Program-made: the position numbers and the translations under genes | Shown here: positions 1-54,456 of the stretch, piece after piece | Layout of the letters: each line of letters opens with the position of its first letter | How positions within the stretch are numbered: position 1 is the stretch's first letter | Notes under the pieces: generated by a model | The model's database searches: none | Seen by the model: only the letters and a program-made list of their open reading frames with translations | What the model was told of the DNA's origin: nothing | Source of the DNA: a bacterium | Lineage (GTDB): Bacteria; Auribacterota; UBA3054 | Length of the DNA stretch: 64,000 nt | Direction: 5' to 3' | Assembly (NCBI GenBank): GCA_017557885.1 | Contig: JAFYXV010000008.1 | Span: 66,843 to 130,842, forward strand

Positions 1-1041
1 AGTTTCACCAAAGCCTGCAACGAATGGCTCCAGACCCTCTCCGGCTCCCCCACCGTGCTTCTCACCCACTCCTGCACCGCGGCGCTGGAAATGTCCGCCC
101 TGCTTTGCGACATCAAGCCTGGCGACGAAGTCATCGTCCCCTCCTTCACCTTCGTGACCACCGTCAGTTCCTTCGTGATGCGGGGCGCCGTGCCGGTCTT
201 CGTGGAGATCAGGCCCGACACGCTCAACATGGACGAGAAGCAGATCGAAAAAAGCATCACTAAAAAGACCAAAGCCATCGTGCCCGTCCACTATGCCGGC
301 GTCGGCTGCAATATGAGCGCCATCATGAAGATCGCGAGAGCCCATGGCCTCAGGGTCGTAGAGGACAACGCCCAGGGCGTCATGTCAAAGTACAAAGGAA
401 AGCCCCTCGGCTCCTTCGGCGATCTGGCGGCGGTCTCCTTCCACGAGACGAAAAACATCATCTCCGGGGAAGGCGGCGCCATTTACATCAACGACCCAAG
501 CCTCAAGGAAAAAGCCGAGATCATCAGGGAGAAAGGCACCAACCGGGCCCGCTTCTTCCGCGGCCAGGTGGACAAATACACTTGGGAAGACCTGGGCTCC
601 TCATACCTTCCCAGCGAGATCATAGCCGCTTTCCTCTATGCGCAAATGGAGGAAGCCGAAAAAATAACCGCCACCAGGCTCAAGATCTGGCACAGATATC
701 ACGAAGCCTTCGCCGATCTGGAAAAGAAAGGCAAACTGCGCCGGCCCATCGTTCCCAAGGAATGCAAGCACAACGCCCATATGTATTACCTGCTGCTCAA
801 TTCCCTGAAGCAGCGCACCAAATTCATCGCCAAGATGCGGGAGAAAGAGATCGGCTGCGTGTTCCATTACCTTCCCCTGCACGATTCTCCGGCAGGGAGA
901 AAATTCGGACGTTTCGACCAAGATCTGCCCATAACAAAAAAAGTCAGCGACACGCTGGTCCGCCTTCCCCTGTGGGTCGGTTTGGAAAAGGACGGCGAGC
1001 AGGACTATGTCATCGAGAATGTCTTGAAAATACTGGGCTGA
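1..1041 (+). CDS. DegT/DnrJ/EryC1/StrS-family sugar aminotransferase (WecE/ArnB-like), 5' end truncated by window edge
   Basis: Frame is open from nt 1; translation ...LLTHSCTAALEMSALLCDIKPGDEVIVPSFTFVTT...VHYAGVGCNMSAIMKIARAHGLRVVEDNAQG matches the PLP-dependent DegT-family pattern; stop at 1039-1041. Confidence 0.8.
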   Translation, partial: SFTKACNEWLQTLSGSPTVLLTHSCTAALEMSALLCDIKPGDEVIVPSFTFVTTVSSFVMRGAVPVFVEIRPDTLNMDEKQIEKSITKKTKAIVPVHYAGVGCNMSAIMKIARAHGLRVVEDNAQGVMSKYKGKPLGSFGDLAAVSFHETKNIISGEGGAIYINDPSLKEKAEIIREKGTNRARFFRGQVDKYTWEDLGSSYLPSEIIAAFLYAQMEEAEKITATRLKIWHRYHEAFADLEKKGKLRRPIVPKECKHNAHMYYLLLNSLKQRTKFIAKMREKEIGCVFHYLPLHDSPAGRKFGRFDQDLPITKKVSDTLVRLPLWVGLEKDGEQDYVIENVLKILG

Positions 1042-2483: not shown

Positions 2484-2591
2484 TTTCCTGCCGGCCGCCT
2501 TTTCAAGGGCAGCATGTTCTTCGGAAACATTTTTATTTTCCCTCAAAACTGCTAAAATTAGTCAATATAAAAATAAAAAGGCGTGAAGAGC

Positions 2592-5489
2592 ATGAAGAAA
2601 CTTTTGACATTCCTGGCGCTGGCGCTAATTTCCCTGGCCGCGCAAGCCGAGACCGCAAAATTCACCTTTGAGGACAACTCCGGAAACATAGACGATCAGG
2701 ACGGCTGGACCGCCGCCGGAAACGCCGCGGTCGCAACCGACCTTAGCGTTTCCGTGACGAACGAGATCAAAGTAAGCGCCTGGCACGCATACGGCGACAA
2801 AGCCCTGGAGCTTGAAGGCGCCGCGACTATTTCGCGCCAAATTTCGTTCAGGGACGACTTAGAGCAAAGGATCGCTTTTGATTTTTACGCGACCTATCCG
2901 GAGGAAGACGCCAACAGATCCTTGGTCCTGAAGCTTGGCGGCGTTCCTCTCCTCAAGCTGGAGGCGGTCGATACCAACGTCATCTCCGCGGAAATTTTCG
3001 GCGGCTTTTTCGGCAATGATCCAGCCTGGCAGCCTGCCGAGGGCGTGCAGACGCTCTACCACCGCAAATGGCAGCACCTTGAGCTTCTGATTGATAAAGA
3101 TCATCTCCTTAAGCTGAAAGCCCCCAACAAGGACGCGGAGATGGCCGGTTTCGCTTTGAAAAGCCCGCTCTCAGCCGGCGAAACGACGCTTTCGATTGAA
3201 AGCGATTTTGAAAAGATCTATCTTGACAATCTGAGATTCACAGAAGAACCTGTCGCCCACAAGACTCTTCTTGAAAAAAATCCCAACGTTTCCCTGGGGC
3301 TCGGCGAAAGCTACGAGTGTTCTTTCGGAAGGGACTGCTCCTTGGGCGGCATGGAATTCAAATGCGCGCTCACGATCCCCCAGAATTGTCTTGGCTTCAT
3401 GAGCCTGAACGAACACACCCTGCCATTGGGCACCTTTTTGTCGCCCGGCGACAACGAGATCATAATCGGCGTTTTGAAAAACGGCCGCCTGATGAAGGCG
3501 ACCGTCAACGGAGAAGAGTTGGATTATGATCTCTCCTTTGACCTGCCTGAAACTATTAGCCTCAAGATCAGCAACCTTTCTCCGACTGCCGACATAAAAG
3601 TCAAAGGAGTCTTCGCCCAGAACAGCCTGCCTATTCTTTACAGCGAAGTCGCCTCCATCGATCTGTTGATGGTGGCCTATACCGGCGGCGGAAACAACAC
3701 TCCTCCCCAAAACTACACCAACATGTACTATCCGAAGGTCCAGGATTTTTATTACCGCAATTCCAACGCCCAGCTCCTTCTGAAGTACGATCCCGTTTAC
3801 CGCCACATCGTTCCCCCGGCGGAAACTTTCTTCCGCAATTATGAGAACGAATTCGGCGAGCAGGAATTAGGCGGCTACATCATGGCCAGGGATCTCAGGA
3901 AAACGCTGGGCATCTGGGATCAGGAATACGATATTTTCGTCTTCACCTGCGGCAACGGCTGGAACAGCTGGGGCGGCAACTGGGGTGGCGGCAGCTGGGG
4001 ATATACCGGCATGGGCAAGGTCATGTGCTCCCAAGTTGGCAACTACGGCGGCAGCGGCACGGGCTTCGTCACGGTCCACGAGGTCATGCACTCGGTGGAC
4101 CAGATGTACTCCTACAGCGGATACCATGAGTACTCAAGCTCGCACCCGGACGGCTGCAGCTACGGCTGGGCCGGCGGAGGCGACACCTGGTCCTGGTGCG
4201 GCACAGCCATGCGTCCCTTCACGAATTATTTCAAATTAAGGACTCCCTGGAAAAACACCTACGTTTACCGTGACAGCGACCGCGACGGCCTGGCCGACAA
4301 CGACTCCGTGCTGCCCATAGACGAAGTGAGGATGAGTTCCGACCAGACCGAGACCGACACCGACAAGGACGGACTTGACGATCTTCAGGAATACCTGGTC
4401 GGGCTTTATTATCCCAGCGACGCCAACGATCCCGACACTGACAAAGACGGGCTGAAGGACGGCGACGACCCCTACCCCATCATCGCTTACAACAAGAGCA
4501 TTCCCAGGCTCCTGAAAGAGCCCAGCATTAACGGTATCTTGGAAGACGACGACTGGACTTACTGGGGCTCCGGCACAGGCGACAGTGAGGATCCTGAATT
4601 CCAGGTCACAGCTTACGCCGGCTGGCGGGACGACGCCGTGTATTTCGCCTTCAAGACCAACAAGAAAAGTTCCTTCACGATCGAAATAGACGGCTCCGCC
4701 TGGTCAGGCCCCTGGCACGGCGGCGACTATTTCAAATTCAAAGCCCACAACCAGTATTACAACAGAATATACGCCGCTTCCAATGACGACAACAGCGTTC
4801 AGGACTGGACCTGCGGCAACGTTCCCGCCGGTTCCCGCTGCATCAAAAAGGACAATGAGCTGGGCGGCTTCAACGTTGAAGTGAAGATCCCCTGCAACCT
4901 GAGATCCATAAGAGGCTACACTTGCTGGCCCGGCGAAGAGGTCACCAACTGTTTCAAATGCGTCTCCGGAGGACAGCTGGGATTATTGGTAAGCTACGAG
5001 GGCATAGGCCTAGACAGAGTCGATATCAACGACTACCATCCCAGCCCCTGGGCCTCCTCCTTTGAAAGGATGGACTGGCATGTCTTCGACCTCGTGGAAG
5101 CCGACGAATCCTTCGCGCTCCTTTCCGCCAAACCCCAGAATGCTGAGCTTCACCTGGGCGAATCGGAACCCATCGATCTCAAGTACGTGAACTACGGCCA
5201 AGCCGGCAACGCTGAAGTAACCATAGAAGCTCCCGACTATTCCTCCTCCGCTTCCGTATACCTTGCGGGCGGCGGCGAGACCACCGAGAGCACGGTTAGC
5301 ATAGATATCCCCGCAAACGAGGAAGCCGCCGGCACGACCGACTTCAACGTCATAACGAAACTGAACGGTTCAGCCGTGACCAACACCTTCACCTGGAACG
5401 TGGTTCCGGAGCCCGCCGCCGCGGCGCTCCTGCTTCTCGGCCTTGCTCTTTTCAGAAGGAAAGCCGATGATCGCCGTCCGCTCCTTTGA
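2592..5489 (+). CDS. PEP-CTERM-anchored secreted protein with HExxH zinc-metallopeptidase motif and thrombospondin-type-3-like calcium-binding repeats
   Basis: Signal peptide MKKLLTFLALALISLAAQA (ATG 2592; longest-ORF GTG at 2583); HEVMHSVDQMYSYSGYHEY; DxDxDG repeats (DSDRDGLADND, DTDKDGLDD, DTDKDGLKDGDD); C-terminal VPEPAAAALLLLGLALFRRK = PEP-CTERM sorting signal. Confidence 0.7.
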   Translation: MKKLLTFLALALISLAAQAETAKFTFEDNSGNIDDQDGWTAAGNAAVATDLSVSVTNEIKVSAWHAYGDKALELEGAATISRQISFRDDLEQRIAFDFYATYPEEDANRSLVLKLGGVPLLKLEAVDTNVISAEIFGGFFGNDPAWQPAEGVQTLYHRKWQHLELLIDKDHLLKLKAPNKDAEMAGFALKSPLSAGETTLSIESDFEKIYLDNLRFTEEPVAHKTLLEKNPNVSLGLGESYECSFGRDCSLGGMEFKCALTIPQNCLGFMSLNEHTLPLGTFLSPGDNEIIIGVLKNGRLMKATVNGEELDYDLSFDLPETISLKISNLSPTADIKVKGVFAQNSLPILYSEVASIDLLMVAYTGGGNNTPPQNYTNMYYPKVQDFYYRNSNAQLLLKYDPVYRHIVPPAETFFRNYENEFGEQELGGYIMARDLRKTLGIWDQEYDIFVFTCGNGWNSWGGNWGGGSWGYTGMGKVMCSQVGNYGGSGTGFVTVHEVMHSVDQMYSYSGYHEYSSSHPDGCSYGWAGGGDTWSWCGTAMRPFTNYFKLRTPWKNTYVYRDSDRDGLADNDSVLPIDEVRMSSDQTETDTDKDGLDDLQEYLVGLYYPSDANDPDTDKDGLKDGDDPYPIIAYNKSIPRLLKEPSINGILEDDDWTYWGSGTGDSEDPEFQVTAYAGWRDDAVYFAFKTNKKSSFTIEIDGSAWSGPWHGGDYFKFKAHNQYYNRIYAASNDDNSVQDWTCGNVPAGSRCIKKDNELGGFNVEVKIPCNLRSIRGYTCWPGEEVTNCFKCVSGGQLGLLVSYEGIGLDRVDINDYHPSPWASSFERMDWHVFDLVEADESFALLSAKPQNAELHLGESEPIDLKYVNYGQAGNAEVTIEAPDYSSSASVYLAGGGETTESTVSIDIPANEEAAGTTDFNVITKLNGSAVTNTFTWNVVPEPAAAALLLLGLALFRRKADDRRPLL

Positions 5490-5517
5490 GAAGGAGGCGT
5501 AGTTCCTTTTCCCTTGC

Positions 5518-5559
5518 GACCGCCGCGCGCCTTTTCCAGGTGCGCGGCGGTCTGCTTTT
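5518..5559 (+). terminator. Putative intrinsic terminator for the PEP-CTERM gene
   Basis: Perfect 11-bp GC-rich stem GACCGCCGCGC / GCGCGGCGGTC with 13-nt loop followed by TGCTTTTCC, about 30 nt after the stop. Confidence 0.45.
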
Positions 5560-5715
5560 CCAATCGCTTCCGCGGCGTCAGCTCCGGCGCGATCAGGCCT
5601 TCTGTGCGGGTCGCTTCAGCCGGCGCACGATCGGCAGGCGTCCTTGCCAGCCCTTCGCGTTCAGCCAGGCTAAAATTCCTTCCGCAGTGTTTGAACAACG
5701 CCGCCCAAAGGAGAT

Positions 5716-5746
5716 AAAAAAAAGAGACCCGCTTTCGCGGGTCTCT
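5716..5746 (-). terminator. Rho-independent terminator for the 5771..6412 gene
   Basis: AGAGACCCGC-tttc-GCGGGTCTCT hairpin; on the minus strand it is followed by T8. Confidence 0.65.
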
Positions 5747-5770
5747 TCCACAAGAATGCTAATTAGCTTC

Positions 5771-6412
5771 TTATTCGGTCACAGGGTTGACCACGTTCAC
5801 GTTCTTGGCGGTGTAAACCAGGCCAGGAGCAACAACGATGGTGCCGCCAGCCTGTTTGGCCTTGAAGGCGACCTTCTTGGGGGTCGTGATGCCAGTGCCT
5901 TCGACTTCGCCGAACTGACCAGCCTGGATGCTCTTGAAGACGCCTTTGAAGGTGCCTTCGACCTTCGTGGTGGCCTTGACGGCCGTGCCCTTGGCGAAGT
6001 TACCAGCATCGACGCTGCCGGTGATGTTGGCGACCTGAGCGGACTTCAAGCCAGCGGCGACGACGGTGCCGACGGTGATGCCTTTCAGCTTAAGAGCGAC
6101 GCCGTTGAAGCCAGCTTCCACGCCGTTGATCGTGCCGGTGACTTTGCCGCCTTTCTGGGCGATGGCTTTACCAGCAGCAGCCTTGACAACGATGTTGCCG
6201 TTGGCGGTGGTGAACTGGACCTGGCCTTTGTCACCCAGCTGGGTGCCGAAGTCAACGATGGTGGCGCCGGTTTCATCGACGGTGACGACCGGGGTCACTT
6301 CGGGCTTGGAGAAGCCTTCCAGACCTTCGCAGAAGACCTGCGGGGTCTTGGCAGCGTAAGCGATAGCAGCGATGACGAGTAAAGAAGCAACGATGATTTT
6401 AGTAGCTTTCAT
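5771..6412 (-). CDS. Small secreted Gly/Thr/Val/Lys/Ala-rich repetitive protein of unknown function
   Basis: Start chosen at internal ATG (MKATKIIVASLLVIAAIAYA signal peptide) preceded by GGAGA; the longest ORF to 6601 adds an implausible non-hydrophobic N-terminus; mature part is degenerate short repeats (KGTAVKATTKVEGTFKG, KGGKVTGTINGVEAG, LKLKGITVGTVVAAG). Confidence 0.6.
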   Translation of the reverse strand: MKATKIIVASLLVIAAIAYAAKTPQVFCEGLEGFSKPEVTPVVTVDETGATIVDFGTQLGDKGQVQFTTANGNIVVKAAAGKAIAQKGGKVTGTINGVEAGFNGVALKLKGITVGTVVAAGLKSAQVANITGSVDAGNFAKGTAVKATTKVEGTFKGVFKSIQAGQFGEVEGTGITTPKKVAFKAKQAGGTIVVAPGLVYTAKNVNVVNPVTE

Positions 6413-6465: not shown

Positions 6466-6698
6466 CAAAATTGTGACTCCCCTCCGGTGGGACGTTTCCT
6501 CGCCCGAAACTTTTCGGACTAAAAATAAAGGCTCGTTTCCCTGTATCGAAGGCCTTAACGCTCGAAGCTGTTATCCGGCCTTTCCCTCTACATTGTTTCA
6601 ATTATCGTAAGGAATTATAACAGAATGCCTGCCGGAAATCAAGTCCTTCTCCGGCCGGCGGGCTGGCGTTCCTGCAAAAACCGCTGCTTTCAGCCGTT

Positions 6699-9600
6699 TT
6701 ACATAACCTCGTTCAGCTCGTTCTCCCGAACGTGCTGGCGTTCCTTCTCCTCCAGGAGCAGCGCCGCCCCGTCCTTTTTCCGGCGTATCGCCCAGTTCAG
6801 GGGATCGCGTTTCCAATTTTCGGAATATTCTCCGTCTATCCTGCGGAAAGAAACGTCCGTGAACTCCACCGCTCCGGGGGAGGCGACGTTCTCGCTTTCC
6901 AGGCAGAAGAAAGAAATATTTTCTGAGCTGTTGGTTATGATCAGGTGCTCCTGGGTCCATTGGCCGCAGAGAGTCCGCCATTTCTTCACTTGGGAATCCG
7001 TATCGCCTCTTTGCCTGAACCGCATGGAAACTTCCGTGGGCGCTTCCCTGCCCTCCGGGATCCTGGCGTAGGCGGAGGCGGCGTAAACGCCGGGCGGCAG
7101 CATCATCCTGACCGAGGCGCCGGCCTTGCCGCCGGGTTCGCCCTGCTCGGAGAGTTTGAAGCCGGGTGTCAAAAGGAAGGTGGCGGGAAGCTTCTCTTCC
7201 TTTTCGGATTCCGCCCGCCATTCTCCCAGCCCTTTGATGAAGTAGCCGTTCATCAGCTGCTCGGCTCCCTCGAAAACTATAACGGCATGCCTGGGCAAAG
7301 AGTTGGTTATGATGCCGCCCATTTCCTTTTGTGCGCTTTCGGAAGCGGGCAGGTCGCCCCTGGCGTCCATCGATTTCTTAAAGGTATCCCACTCTTTGAC
7401 GAAGATCGCGTTTTCCGGACGATTGAGATAGATCTTGTCGAAGGTCTCGGTAAAAGCGCGGAAGTTCTCGTCCGCGAAACCGTAATTCGCTTTGAATTGG
7501 CTTGGGGCTATGAAGGGGATCAGGCCGCCGGCTTTGTAATAGACGTCGAAGAGGAGCCAGGGATCCGGCGTTTCGTTCTTGAGCATTTCAAAATAAGCCC
7601 TGGCCCCCTGGCGGTTTCCGGTCTTGACGCAGAAGAAAAACCGGCCTATGCAGTTGCGGCTTTTTTTCAGTTCGTCTTCCGAAGCGCCTTCCAATCCTTT
7701 TACGATCCATTTGCGATAGGCTTTCCGGATGCTTATTACCGAATAGTCGTCCTGGGAGAGAGGCGGCAGATAAAGCAGCTGCGGGCTTATTTCATAGAGG
7801 GCATCCTCGCTCCAGGCGGAGCGCACGCATTCCGCCAGAGCCAGCGTCATGGCCGCCAGCTGCTGGGGGGAGTGGACTTTCTCCACGGATCTCAAAAGCG
7901 CCGTGGTGTCGTTGACAGCCATGACCGAGCAAATGTCGCTTATGGAGTTGAAATCCGGCCTGCCTATGGTGGAAATGAACCACCAGGCGTAGCCTGTCTC
8001 GCCCAGGAATCTCTCGTCGGCGGAAAGGTAATCGTTGTTTTCCAAAAACACCCATTTGCGGGAAAGTTTCCTTCTCTGCTCATAGCGCAGCACGTCGTAG
8101 AGAGAGGACAATCCCAGGCTTCCCTCTTCGCTTTTTCCCATGCCGGGAAGAACTATGAAGTCTCCCGAACGGAACCCGTTCTCCTGGCTGTCCAGGACCT
8201 GGCAGACTTTTTCCATGACGTCCGAAAGATCGCTGCCCTCCAGCTCGTAGGAGGAACGCCTGTAGCCGAAGAGGAAGGCGACCAAGGGCAGCACGATGAG
8301 CATCGCCGCCAGCGGGCGCAGGCGCGGATTGCCCAGGAAGCGGCTGAGAAGTCTGGCGCAGAGCGTCGCGAAACGGCCGATGAGGATCCCTCCCTGCCCT
8401 ATCGCCGCGGCCAGGAAGACCGTGGAAGCATAGCCTGCGGTCCCGGGATTCAGCTCGCTGACCCGCAGGTAGAAATAGAATAAAACGGTGCTGAGGATGC
8501 CGTAGAGCCCGCAGCGTTTAAGGTCCGTCAGCCACATTAGGAGAATGCCCAGAACGACCGACAGGCCGCAGAGAAATTCCGTGTTGTTGAGCCAGTGGGT
8601 AACCAGGAAAGGATTGGGCGAGGAGGCGATCCAGAAGTTTCCGTTGACTTCAAATTTGGTCGGGTCAAGAGTGCCGCAGAAGAAATAGATCGACGCGATG
8701 GGCAGCAAAAGCGGCAGAAGCCTTGAAACAACAAGGACGGCGAAACTCGCGAAGCTCTTCTGCCTGGCGTTCCAAATTATTCCTATGATCTGCGTCAAAA
8801 AGATCAGGATAAGGCACAGGAACGCAAAGGACGGCATGGCCCCCGGGAAGCCCGCCAGAAGGGAGATCAGAAGGCAGCGGAAAAGATAATACTTGTAGCC
8901 GCTCTGGTAGCTCTTCAGCGAGGCGCAGTAAGAGGTCAGTATCAAAAGCAGCAAAGTCATCTGCAGAACGAAAAGCCCGCCATCCAGCTGGAGTATATTT
9001 CTCCCGGCCAGGAAGAAGACAAGGCCAATGGTCACCGCGGTGGAGGCGGTCAGGATGCCGACCAATCCCTGGATCAGCGCCAAAACGATCAGGCAGCAGG
9101 CGGAGACCACAAGGGACATAAGGGAGTACTGGGCCGGCGTCACCAGAAGCGCGTAGTTCAGCTTCGCGCAGATCCTGGCGTAGGCTATCTGAAGCGTGGT
9201 GAAAGCGGCGCCGCTGCGGTCCGCGGCTTCGCTCATAAAGACGTCACGGATATTCTCAAACATGTGGGCCTGACGGAACACATGCCCCTGGTCCATGGAG
9301 AAATTGCGGTAAACGTCCTGGGAAACTCTCCAAAGGCAAAAGACTGCCGCCGCTATCACCAGCGCGCCGATCAGCTTCGCGCCGATCTTTACGTAGAGGT
9401 CGTTGCCGCCTCTTAAAAAGCCCTGGCTGAAAACGCCGCGGCTTTCGCTCTTCCTGGGCAGCGAAGAAACGTAGGCGTCCTCCCGGTCGTTGTAGTAAGC
9501 GTCGCCTTCGTTTTTCTTTTGGAAAACGGAGGCAGCCCAATCGGCAAGATCCATTATCCTGAAAAAGGCGAGGAAGGCAAAAAACTTGTCGGAAAGCGAA

Positions 9601-10268
9601 AAGCGCGCGCCCTCTGCCTCCTCTTCCTCCTGGGAGGAGAAAAGGAAAGCGTAAAGGGAGGCGAACCTGTCCTGGCAGTAATCCCGGGTCATCATGAGGA
9701 TCGTGTGGAAAGGACGCGCTTCGTTGTCCTGGACTTCCGAAGAAGCCTCTTCCCCGCCGTTCTCCGCAGCCGCGGCCTCTGTTTCGTCTTCAGCTTTCTT
9801 TTCCGTGCCTTTGAAAACGTACTTCTTGCCCAGAACGTAATTCAAAATTATAACTATGGGCTGGGTGATGTATTTGGCCGCCACGCCTGGCTGGAGCACG
9901 ATAAAGGAGAAACTGCAGCCGCCCAGGACAAAAGCCAGCTGGAGATCCTGAGGCAGAAGGACCGACAGAAGTTTCGTCAGGGCGACGTCCACCACCCCGG
10001 AAAGCCCCCTGACCAAAGCGAAGCGCCAGATCTCCATGCCCAGCTCCTTGTTGTCCTTGCAGTGGGAAGCGAAGACCCAAAGCTTGTTGGAAACGTAGGC
10101 GAAGATCTTGGCGCAAACGACGGAGATGACGCCGGAAGTGGTGACGCCCACCCCCATCCGGTACAGGATGTGGTAAACGCCAACGTTGACCACGGTGGTC
10201 AGGACGCCGCAGATCAGATAAGCTATGATCTCTTTGAGGTTCTTTTTCTTTTTTTGCGCGCCAGCCAT
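6699..10268 (-). CDS. Large polytopic membrane protein with N-terminal GtrA-like domain fused to a multi-TM domain and a C-terminal soluble domain (putative polyprenyl-phosphate-sugar-dependent glycosyltransferase or polysaccharide biosynthesis protein)
   Basis: 1189 aa; N-terminus MAGAQKKKKNLKEIIAYLICGVLTTVVNVGVYHILYRMG...AKIFAYVSNKLWVF matches the GtrA family pattern; then acidic linker, more than 12 predicted TM helices and a roughly 450-aa hydrophilic C-terminal region. Confidence 0.65.
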   Translation of the reverse strand: MAGAQKKKKNLKEIIAYLICGVLTTVVNVGVYHILYRMGVGVTTSGVISVVCAKIFAYVSNKLWVFASHCKDNKELGMEIWRFALVRGLSGVVDVALTKLLSVLLPQDLQLAFVLGGCSFSFIVLQPGVAAKYITQPIVIILNYVLGKKYVFKGTEKKAEDETEAAAAENGGEEASSEVQDNEARPFHTILMMTRDYCQDRFASLYAFLFSSQEEEEAEGARFSLSDKFFAFLAFFRIMDLADWAASVFQKKNEGDAYYNDREDAYVSSLPRKSESRGVFSQGFLRGGNDLYVKIGAKLIGALVIAAAVFCLWRVSQDVYRNFSMDQGHVFRQAHMFENIRDVFMSEAADRSGAAFTTLQIAYARICAKLNYALLVTPAQYSLMSLVVSACCLIVLALIQGLVGILTASTAVTIGLVFFLAGRNILQLDGGLFVLQMTLLLLILTSYCASLKSYQSGYKYYLFRCLLISLLAGFPGAMPSFAFLCLILIFLTQIIGIIWNARQKSFASFAVLVVSRLLPLLLPIASIYFFCGTLDPTKFEVNGNFWIASSPNPFLVTHWLNNTEFLCGLSVVLGILLMWLTDLKRCGLYGILSTVLFYFYLRVSELNPGTAGYASTVFLAAAIGQGGILIGRFATLCARLLSRFLGNPRLRPLAAMLIVLPLVAFLFGYRRSSYELEGSDLSDVMEKVCQVLDSQENGFRSGDFIVLPGMGKSEEGSLGLSSLYDVLRYEQRRKLSRKWVFLENNDYLSADERFLGETGYAWWFISTIGRPDFNSISDICSVMAVNDTTALLRSVEKVHSPQQLAAMTLALAECVRSAWSEDALYEISPQLLYLPPLSQDDYSVISIRKAYRKWIVKGLEGASEDELKKSRNCIGRFFFCVKTGNRQGARAYFEMLKNETPDPWLLFDVYYKAGGLIPFIAPSQFKANYGFADENFRAFTETFDKIYLNRPENAIFVKEWDTFKKSMDARGDLPASESAQKEMGGIITNSLPRHAVIVFEGAEQLMNGYFIKGLGEWRAESEKEEKLPATFLLTPGFKLSEQGEPGGKAGASVRMMLPPGVYAASAYARIPEGREAPTEVSMRFRQRGDTDSQVKKWRTLCGQWTQEHLIITNSSENISFFCLESENVASPGAVEFTDVSFRRIDGEYSENWKRDPLNWAIRRKKDGAALLLEEKERQHVRENELNEVM

Positions 10269-10406
10269 AATCGGAATGTCTTTTCTTTCTAATCAGCAAT
10301 AAGAATTTTACCACAAATCCCTCCCAACTCCCAAGGAAGGGGCAGGGAGCCCTGCGCCTCCCTTGAAAAAGGAAGGCCCTTTTGCTAAACTTTTCTTCAC
10401 CACTGT

Positions 10407-10499
10407 GGAGAGATGGCTGAGTGGACGATAGCAACGGCTTGCTAAGCCGTCATACGGTGTTTAACCGTATCGAGGGTTCGAATCCCTCTCTCTCCGCCA
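10407..10499 (+). tRNA. tRNA-Ser (anticodon GCT)
   Basis: Acceptor stem GGAGAGA/TCTCTCC, anticodon loop TTGCTAA, long variable arm, T-loop TTCGAAT, encoded CCA; 93 nt. Confidence 0.85.
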
Positions 10500-10563: not shown

Positions 10564-11457
10564 ATGTTTTCATTCCTGAACCGCGACCTGGACAACTACT
10601 CCCCTCCCAAGGAACGGGAGATCATGCCGTTGGGCAAGCTTCTCGCCTACGCCCAGCCTCACATCGTCCCCTATGTGGTCTACGGCGTCTGCACCGCGGT
10701 CCTGGGCAAGATAATCAACCCCTACCAGGCTTACATCTTCGCTTTCCTCCTGACGCTTCTGGTCATCGGGATCTATTATGTCAAGGGCGATTATCCGGAG
10801 CTCACCTTTAAGGGCCTGAAGTTCCGGGACTGGCTCCTGGCCTTCGCCGTAGGCGTGGTGGGCATCGTCCTTTGGATCCTTCCCTATCACTTCGCCTGGA
10901 AAGTAATGTTCGCCCGCATCCCCATTCTGGGCAACGACAACATCTACCTTTCCCTGACCTACGGCTTCCAGTTCGCGGAGGACGCTTTCCACAAAGCCTC
11001 AGGAGCGCTCGTGATGCTGCCGACGGAATATCCCGAAGCCGCTTATTCCAAGGAAGTCCTGGCGGACGGCGCCGCCAAGCTCAAGGATTTCTTCTCCCTT
11101 TCCTGCGACGCGAATTTCCTGGCCGGCTTCCTGACCTTCGTAAGGATCGCCGGCGCCTCGCTGATGGTTCCGCTTTTCGAGGAGCTTTTCAGCCGCTCCG
11201 CCCTGACCCGTTTCTGCGTGGCTGAAAAATACAAGGAAGTGCCGGTCGGCTACTACACCAAGAAGAGTTTCCTGATCGCCATCGGCTTCTTCATCCTTTC
11301 CCACCCCTGGTGGTTCGTGGCCCTGATCTGGGGCGGCCTGATCTTCTTCCTCTATTACTACAAAAAAAGCCTTCCCCTCTGCATTTTCGCCCACGGCGTG
11401 TCCAATCTTCTCCTGGGCCTTTATGTCATTGCCACCGGCAACTATTACCTTTGGTAA
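10564..11457 (+). CDS. CPBP-family (CAAX protease-like) intramembrane metalloprotease
   Basis: Multi-TM protein with the CPBP motifs EELFSRSALTRF (EExxxR) and FAHGVSNLL (FxxxH...N). Confidence 0.7.
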   Translation: MFSFLNRDLDNYSPPKEREIMPLGKLLAYAQPHIVPYVVYGVCTAVLGKIINPYQAYIFAFLLTLLVIGIYYVKGDYPELTFKGLKFRDWLLAFAVGVVGIVLWILPYHFAWKVMFARIPILGNDNIYLSLTYGFQFAEDAFHKASGALVMLPTEYPEAAYSKEVLADGAAKLKDFFSLSCDANFLAGFLTFVRIAGASLMVPLFEELFSRSALTRFCVAEKYKEVPVGYYTKKSFLIAIGFFILSHPWWFVALIWGGLIFFLYYYKKSLPLCIFAHGVSNLLLGLYVIATGNYYLW

Positions 11458-15588: not shown

Positions 15589-15831
15589 ATGGCTAAAGTT
15601 GATTTTGATCTGAAATACCTGGCGGACGAACTGAAGGACGTTACCTTCGTCAGCTGGTTCGTGGAGGAAGGCCAGGAGGTCAAGGAAGGCGACGACCTCT
15701 GCGAGATCGTCACCGACAAGGCTTCCCTTACTCTTTCCGTCCCCGCCGACGGCGTTATCTCCGAACTGAAATGCCAAAAGAACGACAAACTTGAGGGCGG
15801 CTCCGTCCTCCTTTCCATGGAAGTAAAATGA
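15589..15831 (+). CDS. Stand-alone lipoyl/biotinyl-attachment-domain protein (80 aa)
   Basis: EGDDLCEIVTDKASLTLSVPADGVISEL resembles the lipoyl-domain lysine motif; coupled to hisG (2-nt gap) and to the next gene (ATGA overlap). Confidence 0.5.
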   Translation: MAKVDFDLKYLADELKDVTFVSWFVEEGQEVKEGDDLCEIVTDKASLTLSVPADGVISELKCQKNDKLEGGSVLLSMEVK

Positions 15832-16781
15832 TCGTTTTTGCGGATGATTACGAAAACGGGCAGCCCATCAAACGCCAGCCGCTCTCCGAAGGGCTGGTGG
15901 CTGTCATCCTGGCCCACAACGACGAGAAGACCATCCAATCCGTCATCAAGAAAGCCTCCCGCAAATGCGAGCGCTGCCTGGTGGTGGACGACGGCTCCGA
16001 CGACAAGACCGTGGAGATAGCCAGACAGTCCAGGGCGGAGATCATCACCCACGTAAGTTCCAGGGGCATGATAGCGGCCTTCAACACCGCCGTGGCCTAC
16101 CTGAGGCCCCTCAGCTACAAATACGCCATTTTCCTCTCCGCCAGCGGGCAGCACGAGCCCGGCGACATGCACCGCTTCGTCAGGGCCGCGCAGATAAGGA
16201 ACGCCGACGTCATCTGCGGCAGCCGCGAGAAGAACAGAAGAAGCATCCCGCGTCTCACCAAATGGGCCAACAACATGGCGGACGGCTGCATCAAGTTCAA
16301 GTACGGCTACCGTCTCAACGACCCCCTTTGCAACTACCGCCTGCTCTCCAAGAAGGCCCTGGACACGCTGCCTCCCTGCAGGCACAATTATCTTCTTACC
16401 GCCCACATCCTGCGCCACGCCTACGGATTGAAACTGAGAGTGGGGCATCTGGCCGTCACAGTAGGCCACAACTACGTGACCAAGCCGGCCAGGGCCAGGA
16501 GAGACTTCAAGCAGAGCCTCTACATGTCGCTCTTCATACTCTTCACCCCCAATCCCGATCTGGAAAAGAAAGAGAAGAAGGCCGCCAGAAAACTGGCTGA
16601 GGAAAGCTCGAAACCCATCGTCAAACCGATCGACGAAACGCATAGGAAGCCCAGGAACAAAAAGCGCCGCTACGGAAACAGAAGACGCAGCGCTTCGGAC
16701 ATAAGAGCCATCAAAGACCGCATCATGGACAGCAAGAGTCCGGAAGTCCTGAAAGAGGAACAGGAAGCGAAATTCAATTAA
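15828..16781 (+). CDS. Family 2 glycosyltransferase (DPM1/GtrB-like polyprenyl-phosphate sugar synthase type) with basic C-terminal tail
   Basis: VAVILAHNDEKTI...CLVVDDGSDDKT (GT-A DxD region); C-terminal tail rich in K/R. Confidence 0.7.
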   Translation: MIVFADDYENGQPIKRQPLSEGLVAVILAHNDEKTIQSVIKKASRKCERCLVVDDGSDDKTVEIARQSRAEIITHVSSRGMIAAFNTAVAYLRPLSYKYAIFLSASGQHEPGDMHRFVRAAQIRNADVICGSREKNRRSIPRLTKWANNMADGCIKFKYGYRLNDPLCNYRLLSKKALDTLPPCRHNYLLTAHILRHAYGLKLRVGHLAVTVGHNYVTKPARARRDFKQSLYMSLFILFTPNPDLEKKEKKAARKLAEESSKPIVKPIDETHRKPRNKKRRYGNRRRSASDIRAIKDRIMDSKSPEVLKEEQEAKFN

Positions 16782-47731: not shown

Positions 47732-50700
47732 TTATTTTCTGCGAAGAACGGCTATGCCGAGAAGAGCCAGCAGGAAGAGCGCGGCGGGTTCGGGGACCAC
47801 GGGCGTCAGCTTGACGCTCACGCTTTCCACGCAGACACTGTCGTTGGCAGTGCTGAGGAGCATCCTGAGGGCGTCCACGCCTTCCGTAGCCTTGACGGAG
47901 CCGCTGGTTATGGGCGCGTCAACAACGACAGGATCAGCGGCCCAGGTGAATTCCCTGAACTGCTTGTTGCCGGTCTTGGTGTTAAGTTTGACGGCGTAAT
48001 CGAAAGTTTCGCCGACGGCCGGTCTGGCGGTGGCCAAAGCGGTGGCCGGAGAGTAATCGTTGAAGGTGGGGACAAAAGCGTCGCCGCTTCTGGAGACTAC
48101 GACTTTCATCTGCCTGTGCTCGGAGTCCTGAGTGAGCGTCAGGTCGCCGGCAGGAGCTTTGGTGAAGAGCAGCTTGTAAGCGATCTCAAGATCGTATTTG
48201 TCAGCGATGCCTTCGCCGATGCCGAGAGCGTAGAAGAGGCCGCCTTCGCCGGCCGTGGGATTCTCGGAGGTCTTGGCGTATTCCAGAACGAGGCCGTCGG
48301 AGAAGGTCTGGCTCAAGTCTCCCCTGTCGGTCGCAATGGCTTCGACTTTCAGATCGTCGATATCGAAGGTGCCTTCGCCCCACTGGAAGAAGCGCAGAAT
48401 GGAGAAGGTCTGCGTCTCGTTCTCCTGGTCGCAGAGATATTCGCCGGATTCTTCGTTATTGCCGATCCTGACCTGTCTGAGGACGTGGCGGGCATGTCCT
48501 TCGCTGTCCGTAATAGTGTCGGCGCTGAAGACGGCGCTGAACTCGGTCCACTCGTCCTTTGCGATGGCGTTCTCGGAAACGAATTCCGGATGCGTCTCGT
48601 CGGACTTGTTGCTGGCGAATCTGTAGGATCCGTCGTCATAGCGGAACTGCGTTTCCACGCACTGCGGCGTCCAGAGGCCGAGGTTCTTGGCGGTGGTTCC
48701 GCCCAGTCTAACTTTGAAGCTGACCTTGAAGAAGCCCTTGGCTTTGCCGCTGGCCGCGACCCAGTCGTTGTCCAAAGTCTTGTCCAGCTTCTTGTGGATG
48801 CCGAAGAGGCCGGTAATATCTTTCAATCTAAGATATTTGTTGCCGTTCTCTTCTTTGACGATGGTGCTGCCGTTGACGTCGATGGCGCCGTAGGCCACGC
48901 TCCAGTTGTCCTCGCCGCAGAGATCCTTGCCGTTTTCATATTTCTCAAAGTCTTCCGTAAGCAGCGTGTCGTAAACTTCCCAATCGGCGGTGCTCTTAAT
49001 TTGGGCGTTGACGTCGGCTTCGCCCTTTATGTTCCGGTCGAAGAATCTGGGATCGCCCTTGGGGAACTCGGCGAAATTGGCGCTGTAAACTTCATAGCCT
49101 TTTTCCGGAGTGCCGTTGGGAGCGCCGACTCTGAAAGTGCCCTTGCCCGCTTCGCCGAGATCGATAGTTGCCAAAGTGGAGGCGTACTTCGCTTCCGCAG
49201 GCAGCGTCTTGGGCGTCACCTTGATGGACTGGAATCTCTGGAAGGTGCCGCTCGCAGGCTCAGCCCTGAAGAGATCTTCGTTCTCGAAGGAAACGCTGAA
49301 GTTGGCGGTGGTGCCAGGCAGTTCGTTGGTGATCGTGATCGTCCCGTATTCCTTGGAGAAGGTGATGGGGTCGTAATCGAGGGCAAGTATGGGAACGGAC
49401 TGCTTTTTCGGGGTGAGCTTGGCGTCCACCGCTCCCACGCGGGCCTGGCCGGAACTGAGGGAGAACTTGATCTTGTCAATGGCAGTTGTAGCGTCAGCGC
49501 CGGTAATAGGCAGATTCTCCTTGTAATAGGTGCCGTCCCAGTAGAGCTGCCTCAGGTTCTTCTCGGTGGTAGAGATGTCGTAGCCATAGGTGAACCATTC
49601 GCCGGCGTTGGCTGTGAAGGTGCCCTGCACGCCCTTGACGTTCGAATAAGTCAGGTTGACCTTGTTCTCGAAAAGCCTGAATTCCGTGGCAAACTGCTTG
49701 TGGAAGTCGTCCTGCCCGAAAGTCAGCGCTCCGTTGAAACCGGAGGGAAGCATCATCTGGGCGGCCACGGTGATGTCGTACTTCTTGGCCATGGCTTCCG
49801 TAAATCCCAGTTTGATTTCGACCGAACGCCCGTTATCGTTGCCTAAGAAGAGATCCATGGGATCCTCGTCCGGGAAGTCCAGGGTGTCGTAATCGGTCTC
49901 GGAAACGATGGTCTCGACTTTCAGATTGTCAAGGCAGAAGGTGCCGCTGCCCCAGAGGAAGAAGCGCAAGGTGTTGAAGAAGTCACTGTTGCTGCTCTGA
50001 TCGAGGAAAGCTTTGCAATTTTCAACCTTGTCGCCAACCTTGTACTGGCGCAGGATGTGGCGGTAGTTGTCCCCGGAAGCATCCGACACGGGCTTCGCCT
50101 CTATGATCATGCTGACTCTCGTCCAGCTGGCCTGGGAAATGTAATTCTGGGAAACGAACTCCGTATGGTTGGCGTCGCTGGCGTTGCTGCGGAAGCGGTA
50201 GCCGCTGCCGTTGACATACTCGAAGTTGCCCTCCACCATCTGGGGATCCCAGAGTCCGAAGAACTTGCTGGAAGTGCCGGTCAGCATGGCGTCGAAGCTG
50301 ATGCGGAAGTAGCCTTTGGCGTGGCCTTCCCACCAGTTGGGCTTCATCTGGACGTCCAGCTTTTTGTGGGCGCCGAAGAGATTGTTGACGTAGGCGATCT
50401 CGCAATATCTGTTGCCGAATCTTTCCCTGACGTAGATCGATCCGTCCCTGTCGATGGTGCCGTAGCCGCTTCCCCAGCCGCCGACGCCGCCAAGGTTGGT
50501 GTTGCCGGGATAATCTTCGAAGTCTTCGTCAAGCAAGACTTCCGTAACGTAGTGGTCGAAAGCGTAGTCAAGGTTGCCGCCGTTTTCCCAGAGGCAGTCG
50601 TAATCGCCGGGATTGCCTTTCGGGAACGTGGAGAGATCGGCGGAGTAGAGGCCGTAGCCGTCAGTTTCGTTGCCGCAGGGCGCGCCGAGGCGCACTCTCT

Positions 50701-52825
50701 TCGTGCCGGCGTAACCGGCTTCCACTTCCACCACGCATTCCAGGAACTGGGGAGTGGTGGGAAGATCGAAAGCTTCCACCTGGATCGTGGCGTCGCTCTT
50801 GAAAAGGCCTTCCACCGGGGAGATCGTGAAGTGATCGGCGCCTTTTACGATCTTGGCTTTATATTTGATGGTGGTGTTCTCGTGGCAGTTCGTCAGAGCG
50901 ATGGCGGTAAGGGTGGAGCCTATTTCCATCGGCTTGGCGGAAAGCTTAAGTTCGCCGATGCCGCAGTCCACATGGATGTCGTCGAAGTCGGCACCGCCCG
51001 AGCTGACGTCCTTGAGCCAGACAGAGCTGATGTAAACGTCGTCGGAGCCCGCGACGTAGCATTCGGTCGCGCTGTGGTACTCGTTATTGACGGACCAGCC
51101 AATGAACTCCTTGCTGTTTTCGTCAATAAAGAAGGTCCAGGTCTGCCAGCCGGTACTGATCTGCTGCAGAGTGGTGGATTTGTTGACGCTGCCGCCGGGA
51201 GTGGAAGAGCAGGCCAGGCTCAGCTTTCCGTCGCTGGTGACGTAAGCGTAGCAGAGAGCGTCCTTGGCGCCCCTGATGTCGAAGTAGGTGCCGCCGAAAG
51301 TCGGCTTGACCTTTACGCTGACCTTGTAGGTGCCGTATCCGTTGTCGGACTTGACGTTGACGGGAACCTGGAAGCCGTTGCCGCCCTGGCTGTGAAGGTA
51401 ATAGTTGCCGTTCTGTTCCTTGATCTGGCCGGTGGCGCTAAGATTGATTATGCCCTGTTGCCAGGTGGCGTCGCCCAGATAGAAGTCTTCGTCCGCTTCA
51501 AATCCGCAGTTGAATTCGGAAAGCACGGGAGGCGTGCGGTACAGAGAGGCGTACTTCCTGATCTTCTGCCAGACGGTGGCGCATCTGGTCTTGCTGTTGT
51601 AATAGACCGCGGAGCCGCCGTACTGGAGAAATTGTTCGGAGAAATAAGGCACCCTGTAGCCGTAGTAGGTGCCGTTCCAGCTGCCGTGGTAGGTCATGAT
51701 GGAAAGGCATCTCTGGGTAAGGTTGGTGGCGTAGAAGTAGCAGCCCAGGCTGTGTCCGAAAAGACCGCCGTCCGACGGTCCGGGGCTGCTCGACTGTTCG
51801 GCGGAGTGGTTGCAGCCCATGTTGTGGCCCCACTCGTGGACCCAGGAAAGATCTTCCAGATAGCTGTAGAGCACGATGTGGAAACCGCAGCCTTCCGCGC
51901 CGGTGGGGCTGCCGTGGACATAGCCTAAACCGGCCCAGCCGGAAGTCATGTATCTCGGGGCGTAGCAGACGAAGTCGGCGCCCAGCTTGTCCCTCAAGGC
52001 GGGCACGAACTCGAAGCCTTCCTTGCCCTGCTGCATGCGGGAAAGGTCAGTGCTCGAGTCCTTCGTTTCCTCGTAGTCGCAAAGGTAAGTGCCGACGCAG
52101 GTCAGCTTCGCTTTTATAAGGCTGTTCTGCATGGCCTGGTTGCAGACCGCGATGCCGGCGGCCACCTTCGTGTTGGCGGCTTCCAGACTGCCGGCGGACT
52201 CGATGGATTGGTTGGAGAAGAGGACAATGATGGTCAGCTCCACCACTTCGTCGTCGTCCCAGTTGGCGGCCCAGGCGGACTGCTCGGGAGTAAGGTCAGC
52301 GGCGGGAACGCCGAAGCTGGAAATAGAGTTCTGTTCCTCCCAGACGGGCGCTTCGTGATCCTCCGGATTGGACATCTGGGCGCAGCGCTCGCTGTAAGAA
52401 CATTCCTTAACTTCGTAAACGCCTTTCTGCTTGGTGCCGCTGATCTCGTAGCGGGCGTCGGCCGTAAGGTCTTCCACAACGCCGAAAAGCACGTTGGGGC
52501 CGGCCGCGATGCGCCACTGGCCGGCGAAATTGTCCAGATTACCGGCCCGGCAGACGATGCCGTTCACGTCTTTGACAGCGTAAGTGACGTCGCCCTTCAG
52601 TTCGCCCTGGGGCGTCAGGAAAGTCACCCTGTCGCCTATTTTAAGCTCGGCTAGGGCGAACATAGCGTTCTCGACCTTCGGCTCAGGCGCACTGGGGTAC
52701 GTCGAGAAAATTTGGGCTGTCTGAGCCCCGCTGGGGTCAAGAGTAAGGCAGAAATCCGCGGCGAAGGACGTCGCGGCAAAGATGACCGCGATAACGGCGG
52801 CCAGGATCTGGTAGTGCTTGCGCAT
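47732..52825 (-). CDS. Giant (1697 aa) PEP-CTERM-anchored secreted protein with N-terminal metzincin-type zinc metalloprotease domain and internally duplicated beta-rich domains
   Basis: Signal peptide MRKHYQILAAVIAVIFAATSFA; HEWGHNMGCNH (HExxHxxGxxH); two homologous roughly 200-aa modules (LLDEDFEDYPGNTNLGG...DNLKVE and LLTEDFEKYENGKDLCG...DDLKVE); C-terminal VPEPAALFLLALLGIAVLRRK. Confidence 0.75.
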   Translation of the reverse strand: MRKHYQILAAVIAVIFAATSFAADFCLTLDPSGAQTAQIFSTYPSAPEPKVENAMFALAELKIGDRVTFLTPQGELKGDVTYAVKDVNGIVCRAGNLDNFAGQWRIAAGPNVLFGVVEDLTADARYEISGTKQKGVYEVKECSYSERCAQMSNPEDHEAPVWEEQNSISSFGVPAADLTPEQSAWAANWDDDEVVELTIIVLFSNQSIESAGSLEAANTKVAAGIAVCNQAMQNSLIKAKLTCVGTYLCDYEETKDSSTDLSRMQQGKEGFEFVPALRDKLGADFVCYAPRYMTSGWAGLGYVHGSPTGAEGCGFHIVLYSYLEDLSWVHEWGHNMGCNHSAEQSSSPGPSDGGLFGHSLGCYFYATNLTQRCLSIMTYHGSWNGTYYGYRVPYFSEQFLQYGGSAVYYNSKTRCATVWQKIRKYASLYRTPPVLSEFNCGFEADEDFYLGDATWQQGIINLSATGQIKEQNGNYYLHSQGGNGFQVPVNVKSDNGYGTYKVSVKVKPTFGGTYFDIRGAKDALCYAYVTSDGKLSLACSSTPGGSVNKSTTLQQISTGWQTWTFFIDENSKEFIGWSVNNEYHSATECYVAGSDDVYISSVWLKDVSSGGADFDDIHVDCGIGELKLSAKPMEIGSTLTAIALTNCHENTTIKYKAKIVKGADHFTISPVEGLFKSDATIQVEAFDLPTTPQFLECVVEVEAGYAGTKRVRLGAPCGNETDGYGLYSADLSTFPKGNPGDYDCLWENGGNLDYAFDHYVTEVLLDEDFEDYPGNTNLGGVGGWGSGYGTIDRDGSIYVRERFGNRYCEIAYVNNLFGAHKKLDVQMKPNWWEGHAKGYFRISFDAMLTGTSSKFFGLWDPQMVEGNFEYVNGSGYRFRSNASDANHTEFVSQNYISQASWTRVSMIIEAKPVSDASGDNYRHILRQYKVGDKVENCKAFLDQSSNSDFFNTLRFFLWGSGTFCLDNLKVETIVSETDYDTLDFPDEDPMDLFLGNDNGRSVEIKLGFTEAMAKKYDITVAAQMMLPSGFNGALTFGQDDFHKQFATEFRLFENKVNLTYSNVKGVQGTFTANAGEWFTYGYDISTTEKNLRQLYWDGTYYKENLPITGADATTAIDKIKFSLSSGQARVGAVDAKLTPKKQSVPILALDYDPITFSKEYGTITITNELPGTTANFSVSFENEDLFRAEPASGTFQRFQSIKVTPKTLPAEAKYASTLATIDLGEAGKGTFRVGAPNGTPEKGYEVYSANFAEFPKGDPRFFDRNIKGEADVNAQIKSTADWEVYDTLLTEDFEKYENGKDLCGEDNWSVAYGAIDVNGSTIVKEENGNKYLRLKDITGLFGIHKKLDKTLDNDWVAASGKAKGFFKVSFKVRLGGTTAKNLGLWTPQCVETQFRYDDGSYRFASNKSDETHPEFVSENAIAKDEWTEFSAVFSADTITDSEGHARHVLRQVRIGNNEESGEYLCDQENETQTFSILRFFQWGEGTFDIDDLKVEAIATDRGDLSQTFSDGLVLEYAKTSENPTAGEGGLFYALGIGEGIADKYDLEIAYKLLFTKAPAGDLTLTQDSEHRQMKVVVSRSGDAFVPTFNDYSPATALATARPAVGETFDYAVKLNTKTGNKQFREFTWAADPVVVDAPITSGSVKATEGVDALRMLLSTANDSVCVESVSVKLTPVVPEPAALFLLALLGIAVLRRK

Positions 52826-52992
52826 AAAAAAACCTCCTAGGGATTATTTCATTCATTTTATCAAATTTTGGGCTTCCGGCAAATTTTGAGCCCTCCGCAC
52901 CTTGTTTCATTTTCCCTTTTTGGATAAAATAGAAAGATACTGAAATAAAATTGATAATTATGCTCACATTCATCCCACAAAGGAGAATAGTC

Positions 52993-54441: not shown

Positions 54442-54456
54442 ATCGAGAGTCGCGAA

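Follow-up and report, generated by a model that had tools for sequence, protein, structure and literature searches.

Transmembrane glycosylation systems of several components, in which a GtrA protein is paired with a polytopic glycosyltransferase of the GT-C type, have been described in a number of settings (PMC8035078, PMC11127046). In the three-component systems of Shigella and Salmonella phages (GtrA/GtrB/GtrC) and of Firmicutes (CsbB/GtcA/YfhO and GtlA/GtcA/GtlB), the proposed logic is that a lipid-linked sugar is brought through the membrane and taken over by a polytopic enzyme that has an outward-facing domain. Members of the GtrA family, such as GtrA, GtcA and Rv3789, are mostly stand-alone proteins of 120-150 amino acids (aa), and the family has been linked to polyprenyl-monophosphate monosaccharides, not to undecaprenyl-diphosphate (Und-PP) oligosaccharides (PMC11127046, PMC8035078). 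A fused arrangement is found in the type-III dolichyl-phosphate mannose synthase of Pyrococcus, which joins a catalytic domain of glycosyltransferase family 2 (GT2) to a transmembrane (TM) domain resembling GtrA and proposed to flip the lipid-linked product (PMC12992685). Here we analyze a 64,000-nucleotide stretch from an uncultured bacterium of the lineage Auribacterota; UBA3054 (GenBank assembly GCA_017557885.1, contig JAFYXV010000008.1, positions 66,843 to 130,842; hereafter the window), in which a gene at 6699..10268 on the minus strand encodes a GtrA module fused to a large polytopic membrane protein. We tentatively read this protein as a GtrA plus GtrC/YfhO-type (GT-C-like) pair in a single chain, serving extracytoplasmic glycosylation with polyprenyl-phosphate sugars, and rate the chance of this as slightly less than even.

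The gene is one open reading frame (ORF) of 1189 aa that runs from ATG to stop, the stop codon being included in the coordinates and the ATG at 10268 being the earliest start available in frame. Its layout, derived from Kyte-Doolittle hydropathy and AlphaFold secondary structure, which agree with each other, is a GtrA module followed by an acidic linker, about 11 TM helices and a predicted periplasmic part of about 520 aa. A preliminary description, made from the sequence alone, had proposed a fusion of GtrA to a polytopic membrane protein with a soluble C-terminal domain, and the ORF, the Pfam match and the hydropathy profile all bear this out. Its count of more than 12 TM helices also holds, since there are about 15 in total (4 in the GtrA part and 11 between aa 289 and 668). 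The hydrophilic C-terminal part is likewise present, but it comprises about 520 aa (aa 669-1189) and not about 450.

Among 5.8 billion proteins searched, 27 homologues were found, with lengths of 1187-1232 aa (one is truncated) and identities of 47-100%; all of them align end to end in a single frame and contain PF04138. Eight lie on contigs of metagenome-assembled genomes in GenBank, whose sources are the rumens of yak, water buffalo, goat and sheep as well as 'bacterium UBP3_UBA3054' (candidate phylum, unclassified); four contigs carry an identical copy of the protein. Measured against the two closest relatives, the ratio of nonsynonymous to synonymous substitution rates (dN/dS) lies at 0.13-0.17 over the gene as a whole, and no segment, not even the linker, reaches 0.25. 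The gene is under purifying selection.

The GtrA assignment, which the preliminary description had proposed to check by a hidden Markov model (HMM) search, is confirmed: aa 17-152 (9813..10220, minus strand) match the Pfam model PF04138 (GtrA_DPMS_TM) with 65.3 bits against a gathering score of 26.1 (E 7.3e-18), and the match spans positions 2-117 of the 117 in the model. Besides GtrA, no Pfam or NCBIfam match at E up to 1 is found in the protein. AlphaFold places the helices of the module at 12-37, 42-64, 73-104 and 127-145, and its lysine plus arginine (K+R) counts are 5.2 at the N-terminus, 5.0 in loop 2 and 3.6 after the fourth helix (TM4), versus about 1.0 in loops 1 and 3; the module is predicted to comprise 4 TM helices with both ends in the cytoplasm. 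Previous work on GtcA has identified residues that are conserved in more than 99% of its homologues (A65, N69, V73, F74, F91, R95, K121 and N132) together with further highly conserved ones (Y24, G28, T31, T32, N35 and F141), and Rismondo et al. found R95 in TM3 and N132 in TM4 to be essential in Listeria GtcA (PMC7389260). By motif spacing, and not by a computed alignment, R95 and N132 correspond to R87 and N143 of the fusion protein, while the other counterparts are Y17, G21, T24, T25, N28, A57, N61, V65, F66, F83, K132 and F152. All of these positions are invariant in the 27 sequences.

With GtrA, GtcA and Rv3789, the first 150 aa share a match to the entire family model, 4 TM helices and the essential GtcA residues. 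They differ from these proteins in making up only the N-terminal eighth of a 1189-aa chain, in about 19 extra hydrophobic residues inserted into the TM3-TM4 loop (aa 105-127), for which a membrane span is not predicted, and in falling below the cut-off of the NCBIfam subfamily gtrA_1 (18.3 bits versus 50). The module is also the most conserved segment of the protein, with 70% identity to the group of homologues that are about 50% identical overall, versus 35-60% elsewhere. From its sequence, it looks like a genuine and functional GtrA module. The Pyrococcus synthase offers a parallel in that its GtrA-like 4-TM module, too, is joined to an enzyme from its own pathway; there, however, the partner is a cytoplasmic synthase. 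In the protein studied here the module has a polytopic partner that extends outward, and this partner would stand at the consuming rather than the producing end of the pathway.

The module is followed by a predicted cytoplasmic linker (aa 153-294; 9387..9812, minus strand). Charge counts agree with its earlier description as acidic, with 28 D/E versus 17 K/R over aa 155-300 and a family mean of 30 versus 15 over the loop 146-288. It is the least conserved segment (35% identity), and still its dN/dS is 0.11-0.23 and it contains conserved motifs, namely RPFH (185-188), Q199/F202/Y206/L209-F210 and D243-W244.

Beyond the linker lies a bundle of 11 predicted TM helices (aa 295-668; 8265..9386, minus strand), delimited by hydropathy and AlphaFold helices, the first helix being placed at aa 289-319. 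Given a GtrA module with both ends inside, helix 1 of the bundle is predicted to run from inside to outside, leaving the loop at aa 320-377 and the whole of aa 669-1189 on the outer side. In the short loops of the bundle, K+R sum to 11.0 on the predicted cytoplasmic side versus 4.2 on the periplasmic side. On the basis of hydropathy, the AlphaFold helices and the positive-inside rule, the predicted topology resembles that of GT-C enzymes, with the N-terminus inside, a long first outer loop and the C-terminal domain outside. Topology prediction, one of the checks proposed earlier, gives the picture known from GT-C proteins, namely 8-13 helices entered from the cytoplasm and a long first outer loop with short surface helices.

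Conservation within the bundle is concentrated on its outer side: 58 of 140 positions in the outer loops (41%) are invariant, versus 14 of 60 (23%) in the inner loops. The first predicted periplasmic loop (aa 320-377; 9138..9311, minus strand), with 58 residues and AlphaFold helices at 328-336, 340-345 and 351-372, is invariant at 23 of 63 positions, among them Q327, H329, R332, Q333, H335, E338 and R351, and is a candidate active or binding site. Its motif F-x-M-x-Q-x-H-x-F-R-Q-x-H-M-x-E (323-338) is joined on the outer side by the invariant motifs N-x-x-Q-L-D-G-G (424-431), P-G-x-x-P (475-479), D-P ... F-W-I-x-S-x-P-x-P (535-553) and P-x-T-x-G-Y-A-S (608-615). Such clustering of invariant residues suggests a site at the membrane's outer face, like that of enzymes acting on flipped lipid-linked sugars.

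Structure prediction, likewise proposed earlier as a check, was informative for the soluble parts and not for the TM bundle, whose models are too poor for an informative fold search. The full-length AlphaFold2 model, built on an alignment of only 27 closely related sequences, has a mean predicted local distance difference test (pLDDT) score of 53 and is usable only at aa 690-970 and 1049-1143, and a second model restricted to aa 283-800 has a pLDDT of 58. Foldseek returned nothing below E 0.1 for the aa 283-800 model. Its top match, the GT-C enzyme ALG12 (probability 0.38, TM-score 0.2), was not counted.

The part of the protein predicted to be periplasmic begins with a juxtamembrane alpha/beta domain (aa 669-800; 7869..8264, minus strand; pLDDT 60-85), the only region with a relative outside the family, namely the family of a protein that we label P0031, to whose domain at the corresponding position it is weakly homologous. 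Next comes a helical-repeat domain (aa 801-970; 7359..7868, minus strand), which is all helical and the best-modelled part (pLDDT 75-90; 70-90 over aa 690-970 as a whole), has no Pfam match and is among the fastest-evolving parts at 35% identity. A beta-sandwich similar to carbohydrate-binding modules (CBMs) follows at aa 1046-1145 (6834..7133, minus strand), modelled over aa 1049-1143 at pLDDT 55-80. It has no Pfam match; in a Foldseek search of the PDB with the full-length model it was the only part to be matched, by CBM22, CBM16, CBM4 and CBM61 structures with probability 1.00, E 2e-3 to 5e-2 and a target TM-score of about 0.45-0.5. Its last strands were also aligned by hhalign with the CBM_4_9-like end of P0031 (E 2e-4, 47% probability, 50 columns). 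By these weak fold and profile matches, the C-terminal sandwich resembles a carbohydrate-binding module. The chain closes with a charged helix (aa 1146-1189; 6702..6833, minus strand), which AlphaFold secondary structure places at 1146-1188.

Relatives of the region beyond the GtrA module are few. A HMMER profile of aa 156-1189, run against 1.84 billion cluster representatives, recovered one full-length representative of the family, two fragments and a weak outsider, P0031 (E 8.8e-4). Searches of PDB sequences with the single sequence and with a profile found no match, and a lenient Pfam scan (E up to 10) of the TM region (aa 283-800) of 11 family members gave nothing relevant. P0031 is a protein of 1182 aa from a tiny family whose N-terminus is 32% identical to P0034, a protein with tetratricopeptide repeats and a solid PMT_2 match (E 7e-19); P0033 has a PMT_2 match below threshold. 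Judged by its sequence, P0031 is a divergent GT-C enzyme of the PMT_2 (ArnT/PMT) type. Its family, as represented by P0031-P0033, spans 870-1182 aa, with a divergent PMT_2-like N-terminus that falls below the Pfam PMT_2 threshold and the motifs 'GLW-x-DEYIT' and 'YYSREARYY'. NPCBM is clear in P0031 and P0032 and weak in P0033, and a weak CBM_4_9 is seen in P0031 only.

When aligned by hhalign with the P0031 family, the fusion protein scores 83% with the single sequence and 53% profile against profile, with similarity confined to the last TM helices and the juxtamembrane domain. The PMT_2-type proteins P0031-P0034 (CAZy GT39/GT83 type) resemble the fusion protein in the order of their parts, with many TM helices followed by a periplasmic alpha/beta domain and one or more CBM-type beta-sandwiches, and in the weak homology of the juxtamembrane domain and the last CBM strands. 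They differ in that the TM bundles cannot be aligned and that none of the four has a GtrA module; the 'W-x-DE' motif in the first loop of the P0031 family has no counterpart in the fusion protein. As proof of GT-C membership the link to P0031 was rejected, because the similarity ends at the last TM helices and the juxtamembrane domain. As far as sequence comparison reaches, the fusion protein carries outward-facing domains of a kind found on a GT-C enzyme, on a TM bundle that is linked to no family. A precedent for the fusion of GtrA to a real GT-C enzyme does exist in P0028, which contains GtrA and YfhO in one chain and in the same domain order.

The preliminary description had gone on to suggest a GT-C-type glycosyltransferase with a built-in module for handling lipid-linked sugars, and this suggestion stands in part. 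It agrees with a GtrA module that looks functional, with the predicted topology, with the CBM-like sandwich and with the precedent of P0028. The HMM searches against GT-C families (PMT/ArnT/YfhO) that had been proposed as a check found no match for the TM bundle, the alignment with PMT_2-like proteins is partial, and membership in the GT-C superfamily is not established.

A number of results weigh against reading the fusion partner as a GT-C-like transferase supplied by its own GtrA module. No GT-C HMM matches the TM region of any of the 11 family members, even below threshold. Comparison by hhalign with the YfhO protein P0028 gives a probability of 0.1%, with no similarity outside GtrA, and the alignment with the PMT_2-like P0031 family leaves out the first nine TM helices. 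In the 27-sequence alignment the first outer loop has no invariant Asp (position 326 is D/N/T/E and position 328 is G/D/T), E338 being its only invariant acidic residue. No glycan-assembly genes cluster with the fusion gene in the 64-kb window, and there is no convincing donor synthase nearby, since the only GT2 in the window is without a DxD motif and TM helices. Direct proof that GtrA proteins act as flippases has never been obtained (PMC11127046); they are also thought to work as dimers (PMC8035078), a state that the fusion protein may or may not be able to adopt. The three-component systems differ from the locus on two of the same points, in that the polytopic part here matches no GT-C family (YfhO, PMT_2, ArnT or others) and that the gene is not in an operon with a GtrB-type synthase, the nearest GT2 having neither the DxD motif nor TM anchors; the host, judged from its SurA and LpxI genes, is furthermore diderm. 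Nevertheless, a review of these systems notes that their GT-C enzymes can show very low sequence similarity (PMC8035078).

If the fusion protein is indeed a GtrA module serving a fused GT-C-like transferase, it could work as follows. The GtrA module would receive or flip a polyprenyl-phosphate-linked monosaccharide made in the cytoplasm, where the acidic linker may dock the synthase. The 11-TM bundle, with its invariant His, Arg, Glu, Gln and Asp residues in periplasmic loops, would then use the flipped sugar at the outer face of the inner membrane, and the 520-aa periplasmic part, with its alpha/beta domain, helical repeat and CBM-like sandwich, would hold the acceptor, either a surface glycan or a secreted protein. 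Flipping, glycosyl transfer and the nature of donor and acceptor are inferred here, transfer at the outer face from the fusion to GtrA together with the conservation of the outer loops.

A GT2 gene at 15828..16781 (plus strand) had been put forward as a source of the lipid-linked donor. The gene is real (PF00535, E 2.4e-15), but its role as donor supplier is doubtful on account of its strand, distance, sequence and synteny. It lies on the strand opposite to the fusion gene, 5.5 kb away and beyond the genes for a Rce1-like protein, Rho, RuvB and HisG. Its best NCBIfam matches are all polyprenyl-phosphate glycosyltransferases (PpgS, AglJ and ArnC), at no more than 54 bits versus cut-offs of 325-529. 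Where ArnC has 'LDADLQNPP', it has 'LSASGQHEP', so that SAS replaces the metal-binding DAD, and this SAS is invariant in four relatives. No hydrophobic or TM segment above threshold was detected in it. Its place near the fusion gene is explained by a synteny that extends over the whole block. Because DAD is replaced, a TM segment is absent and housekeeping genes separate it from the fusion gene, it was downgraded as a dedicated donor synthase, and the window holds no clustered GtrB-type GT2 with DxD and C-terminal TM anchors. Being conserved (79-96% identity), the GT2 is presumably functional, though non-canonical. Its C-terminal tail of about 75 aa is highly charged; a pairing of the acidic linker with this tail through complementary charge was considered and dropped, as the charge of the tail is mixed.

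The first of the alternatives, which we regard as unlikely, is that the TM bundle is some other enzyme of polyprenyl-linked glycans at the periplasmic face, either a Wzy/WaaL-like polymerase or ligase (GT-C_B logic) or a protein O-oligosaccharyltransferase. GtrA would then be a membrane anchor or substrate recruiter, and the target would be an exopolysaccharide or the 213-aa protein encoded next to the fusion gene. Enzymes of the WaaL/Wzy type bind (pyro)phosphate with His and Arg, while Asp is typical of GT-C_A, and it is His and Arg that predominate among the invariant residues of the first outer loop (H329, R332, H335 and R351). Against this, scans at E up to 10 gave no match to a Wzy_C, O-antigen polymerase or PglL-type HMM, and the GtrA family is tied, as set out above, to monosaccharides on polyprenyl monophosphate (PMC11127046, PMC8035078).

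The same alternative draws on the neighbourhood of the gene. The 213-aa protein (5771..6412, minus strand) has a signal peptide (MKATKIIVASLLVIAAIAYA), and V, G, T, A and K abound in its mature part. In each of the 10 loci examined its gene lies directly downstream of the fusion gene on the same strand, so that a Thr-rich secreted protein is always found there. Pfam and PDB contain no match for it, and it occurs in the same lineage only. The gene has the best promoter-like site of the region (6614-6642, minus strand; TTGATT-17-TATAAT with TG, 10/12) and a terminator with a 13-bp stem (5720-5749, minus strand); as no terminator-like site lies between the two genes, read-through from the fusion gene is possible. 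On the other flank of the fusion gene, and adjoining it in all loci, is a divergent gene for a Rce1-like membrane protease (10564..11457, plus strand; PF02517), which scores 96.6 bits versus a cut-off of 81 with TIGR03008, the model that NCBIfam labels as a PEP-CTERM-associated CAAX protease. A 968-aa protein at 2583-5489 (plus strand), on the 213-aa side, shows weak matches below cut-off to PEP-CTERM models at its C-terminus. PEP-CTERM systems at large are associated with exopolysaccharide loci, and here a PEP-CTERM-type CAAX protease stands on one flank of the fusion gene and a PEP-CTERM-like protein on the other. No exosortase was seen in the window.

These associations are offset by two observations. 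The first is synteny: beyond the Rce1-like gene come Rho, an unknown ORF, RuvB, HisG, a biotinyl-lipoyl protein, the GT2 and polyamine genes, and the order of this housekeeping block is identical in all relatives. The region being syntenic throughout the lineage, adjacency tells little about function. The second is that the 213-aa protein and the fusion protein do not diverge in step. Among loci, the 213-aa protein is 84-99% identical: the value is 98-99% for genomes in which the fusion protein has an identity of only 48-50%, and yet only 84-90% for the copies of some other genomes, including that of the closest relative (L001). Its pattern of identity is incongruent with that of the neighbouring genes and may reflect recombination. 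To see the 213-aa protein as an acceptor is speculation.

Other features of the surroundings were noted. Upstream of the fusion gene a consensus scan found a promoter-like site (10305..10334, minus strand; TTGGGA-18-TAAAAT with TG, 9/12), which is a pattern match only, and a tRNA-Ser (GCT) gene (10407-10499, plus strand) lies within the 296 bp of intergenic DNA that separate the divergent fusion and Rce1-like genes. An ORF of 298 aa with a TTG start at 5486-6382 (plus strand) is antisense to the conserved 213-aa gene and probably spurious; at its start lies a strong plus-strand terminator (5518-5552) belonging to the gene before it. The only other glycan-related gene in the window encodes a sugar aminotransferase of the DegT/DnrJ/EryC1 type (55-1041, plus strand), about 5.6 kb past the 3' end of the fusion gene. 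Farther off, in a 1697-aa ORF at 47732-52825 (minus strand), the only recognizable part is a reprolysin-like M12 metallopeptidase domain (aa 207-387). The gene at 52951-56298 (plus strand) encodes a protein with two lamin-tail domains and is followed by an unknown ORF and by a gene for a VTC-domain protein, which may be related to polyphosphate.

A second alternative, also improbable in our estimate, is that the part after GtrA is non-catalytic, being either a membrane-anchored carbohydrate-binding or scaffold protein, for example one that tethers or organizes a surface polymer, or a transporter or channel that has kept an ancestral GtrA membrane module. No catalytic signature was identified, and the best-modelled parts, the helical repeat and the CBM-like sandwich, are typical binding modules. 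The rate of evolution also enters here, in that the soluble domains evolve fastest. The fusion gene is itself the fastest-evolving gene in a conserved housekeeping block: when the window is compared with six relatives (L003, L004, L006, L008, L009 and L011), RuvB, HisG and saccharopine dehydrogenase are 90-98% identical, the GT2 79-86%, and the Rce1-like protein and Rho 78-84%, while the fusion protein is only 48-50% identical. Its rate of nonsynonymous substitution (dN) is 3-5 times that of its neighbours, with a dN/dS that is still 0.13-0.17, and within the protein the divergence is largest in the periplasmic helical domain and the linker. We read this pattern, in favour of the GT-C-like transferase, as fitting a functional, surface-directed enzyme with drifting specificity domains. 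The 58 invariant positions out of 140 in the outer loops (with QLDGG, FRQxHMxE and SSPNP) are more than one would expect of a passive anchor, and the functional residues of GtrA are strictly kept; both argue against a non-catalytic partner.

Less probable again, and in our view a long shot, is that the 11-TM bundle represents a new family, possibly with a new fold, of glycosyltransferases that use polyprenyl-phosphate sugars, with their own flippase fused to them and the 213-aa protein as acceptor. If true, this would be a compact, lineage-specific system for the glycosylation of a surface protein in an uncultured rumen phylum. Finally, the possibility, raised in the preliminary description, that adjacent gtrA and membrane-protein genes were merged through a sequencing or assembly error has only the prior ground that GtrA proteins are mostly small and stand-alone, no evidence for a merger having been found, and we reject it with near certainty in view of the uninterrupted frame in 27 homologues from independent assemblies and hosts, the identical protein on four contigs, and a linker with invariant motifs under purifying selection.

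Fusions of GtrA to GT-C enzymes being already known from P0028, the architecture alone is unsurprising to a specialist. What is unusual is the combination of an orphan partner restricted to one lineage, a conserved acidic linker, a CBM-like outer domain and a housekeeping setting with no canonical synthase in sight. Were the protein not an enzyme, it would merely be a lineage-specific membrane protein with a GtrA anchor. If instead it is a glycosyltransferase, the orphan partner would found a new CAZy family. Whether flipping is truly what GtrA proteins do, and how they pass their lipid-linked sugars to an outward-facing transferase, is unsettled (PMC11127046, PMC7389260, PMC12992685), and because a single chain fixes the stoichiometry and proximity of the two activities, the fusion protein would be a convenient object for studying this hand-over. 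For the organism, the gene would mark a fast-evolving determinant of surface glycans in an abundant, uncultured group of rumen bacteria.

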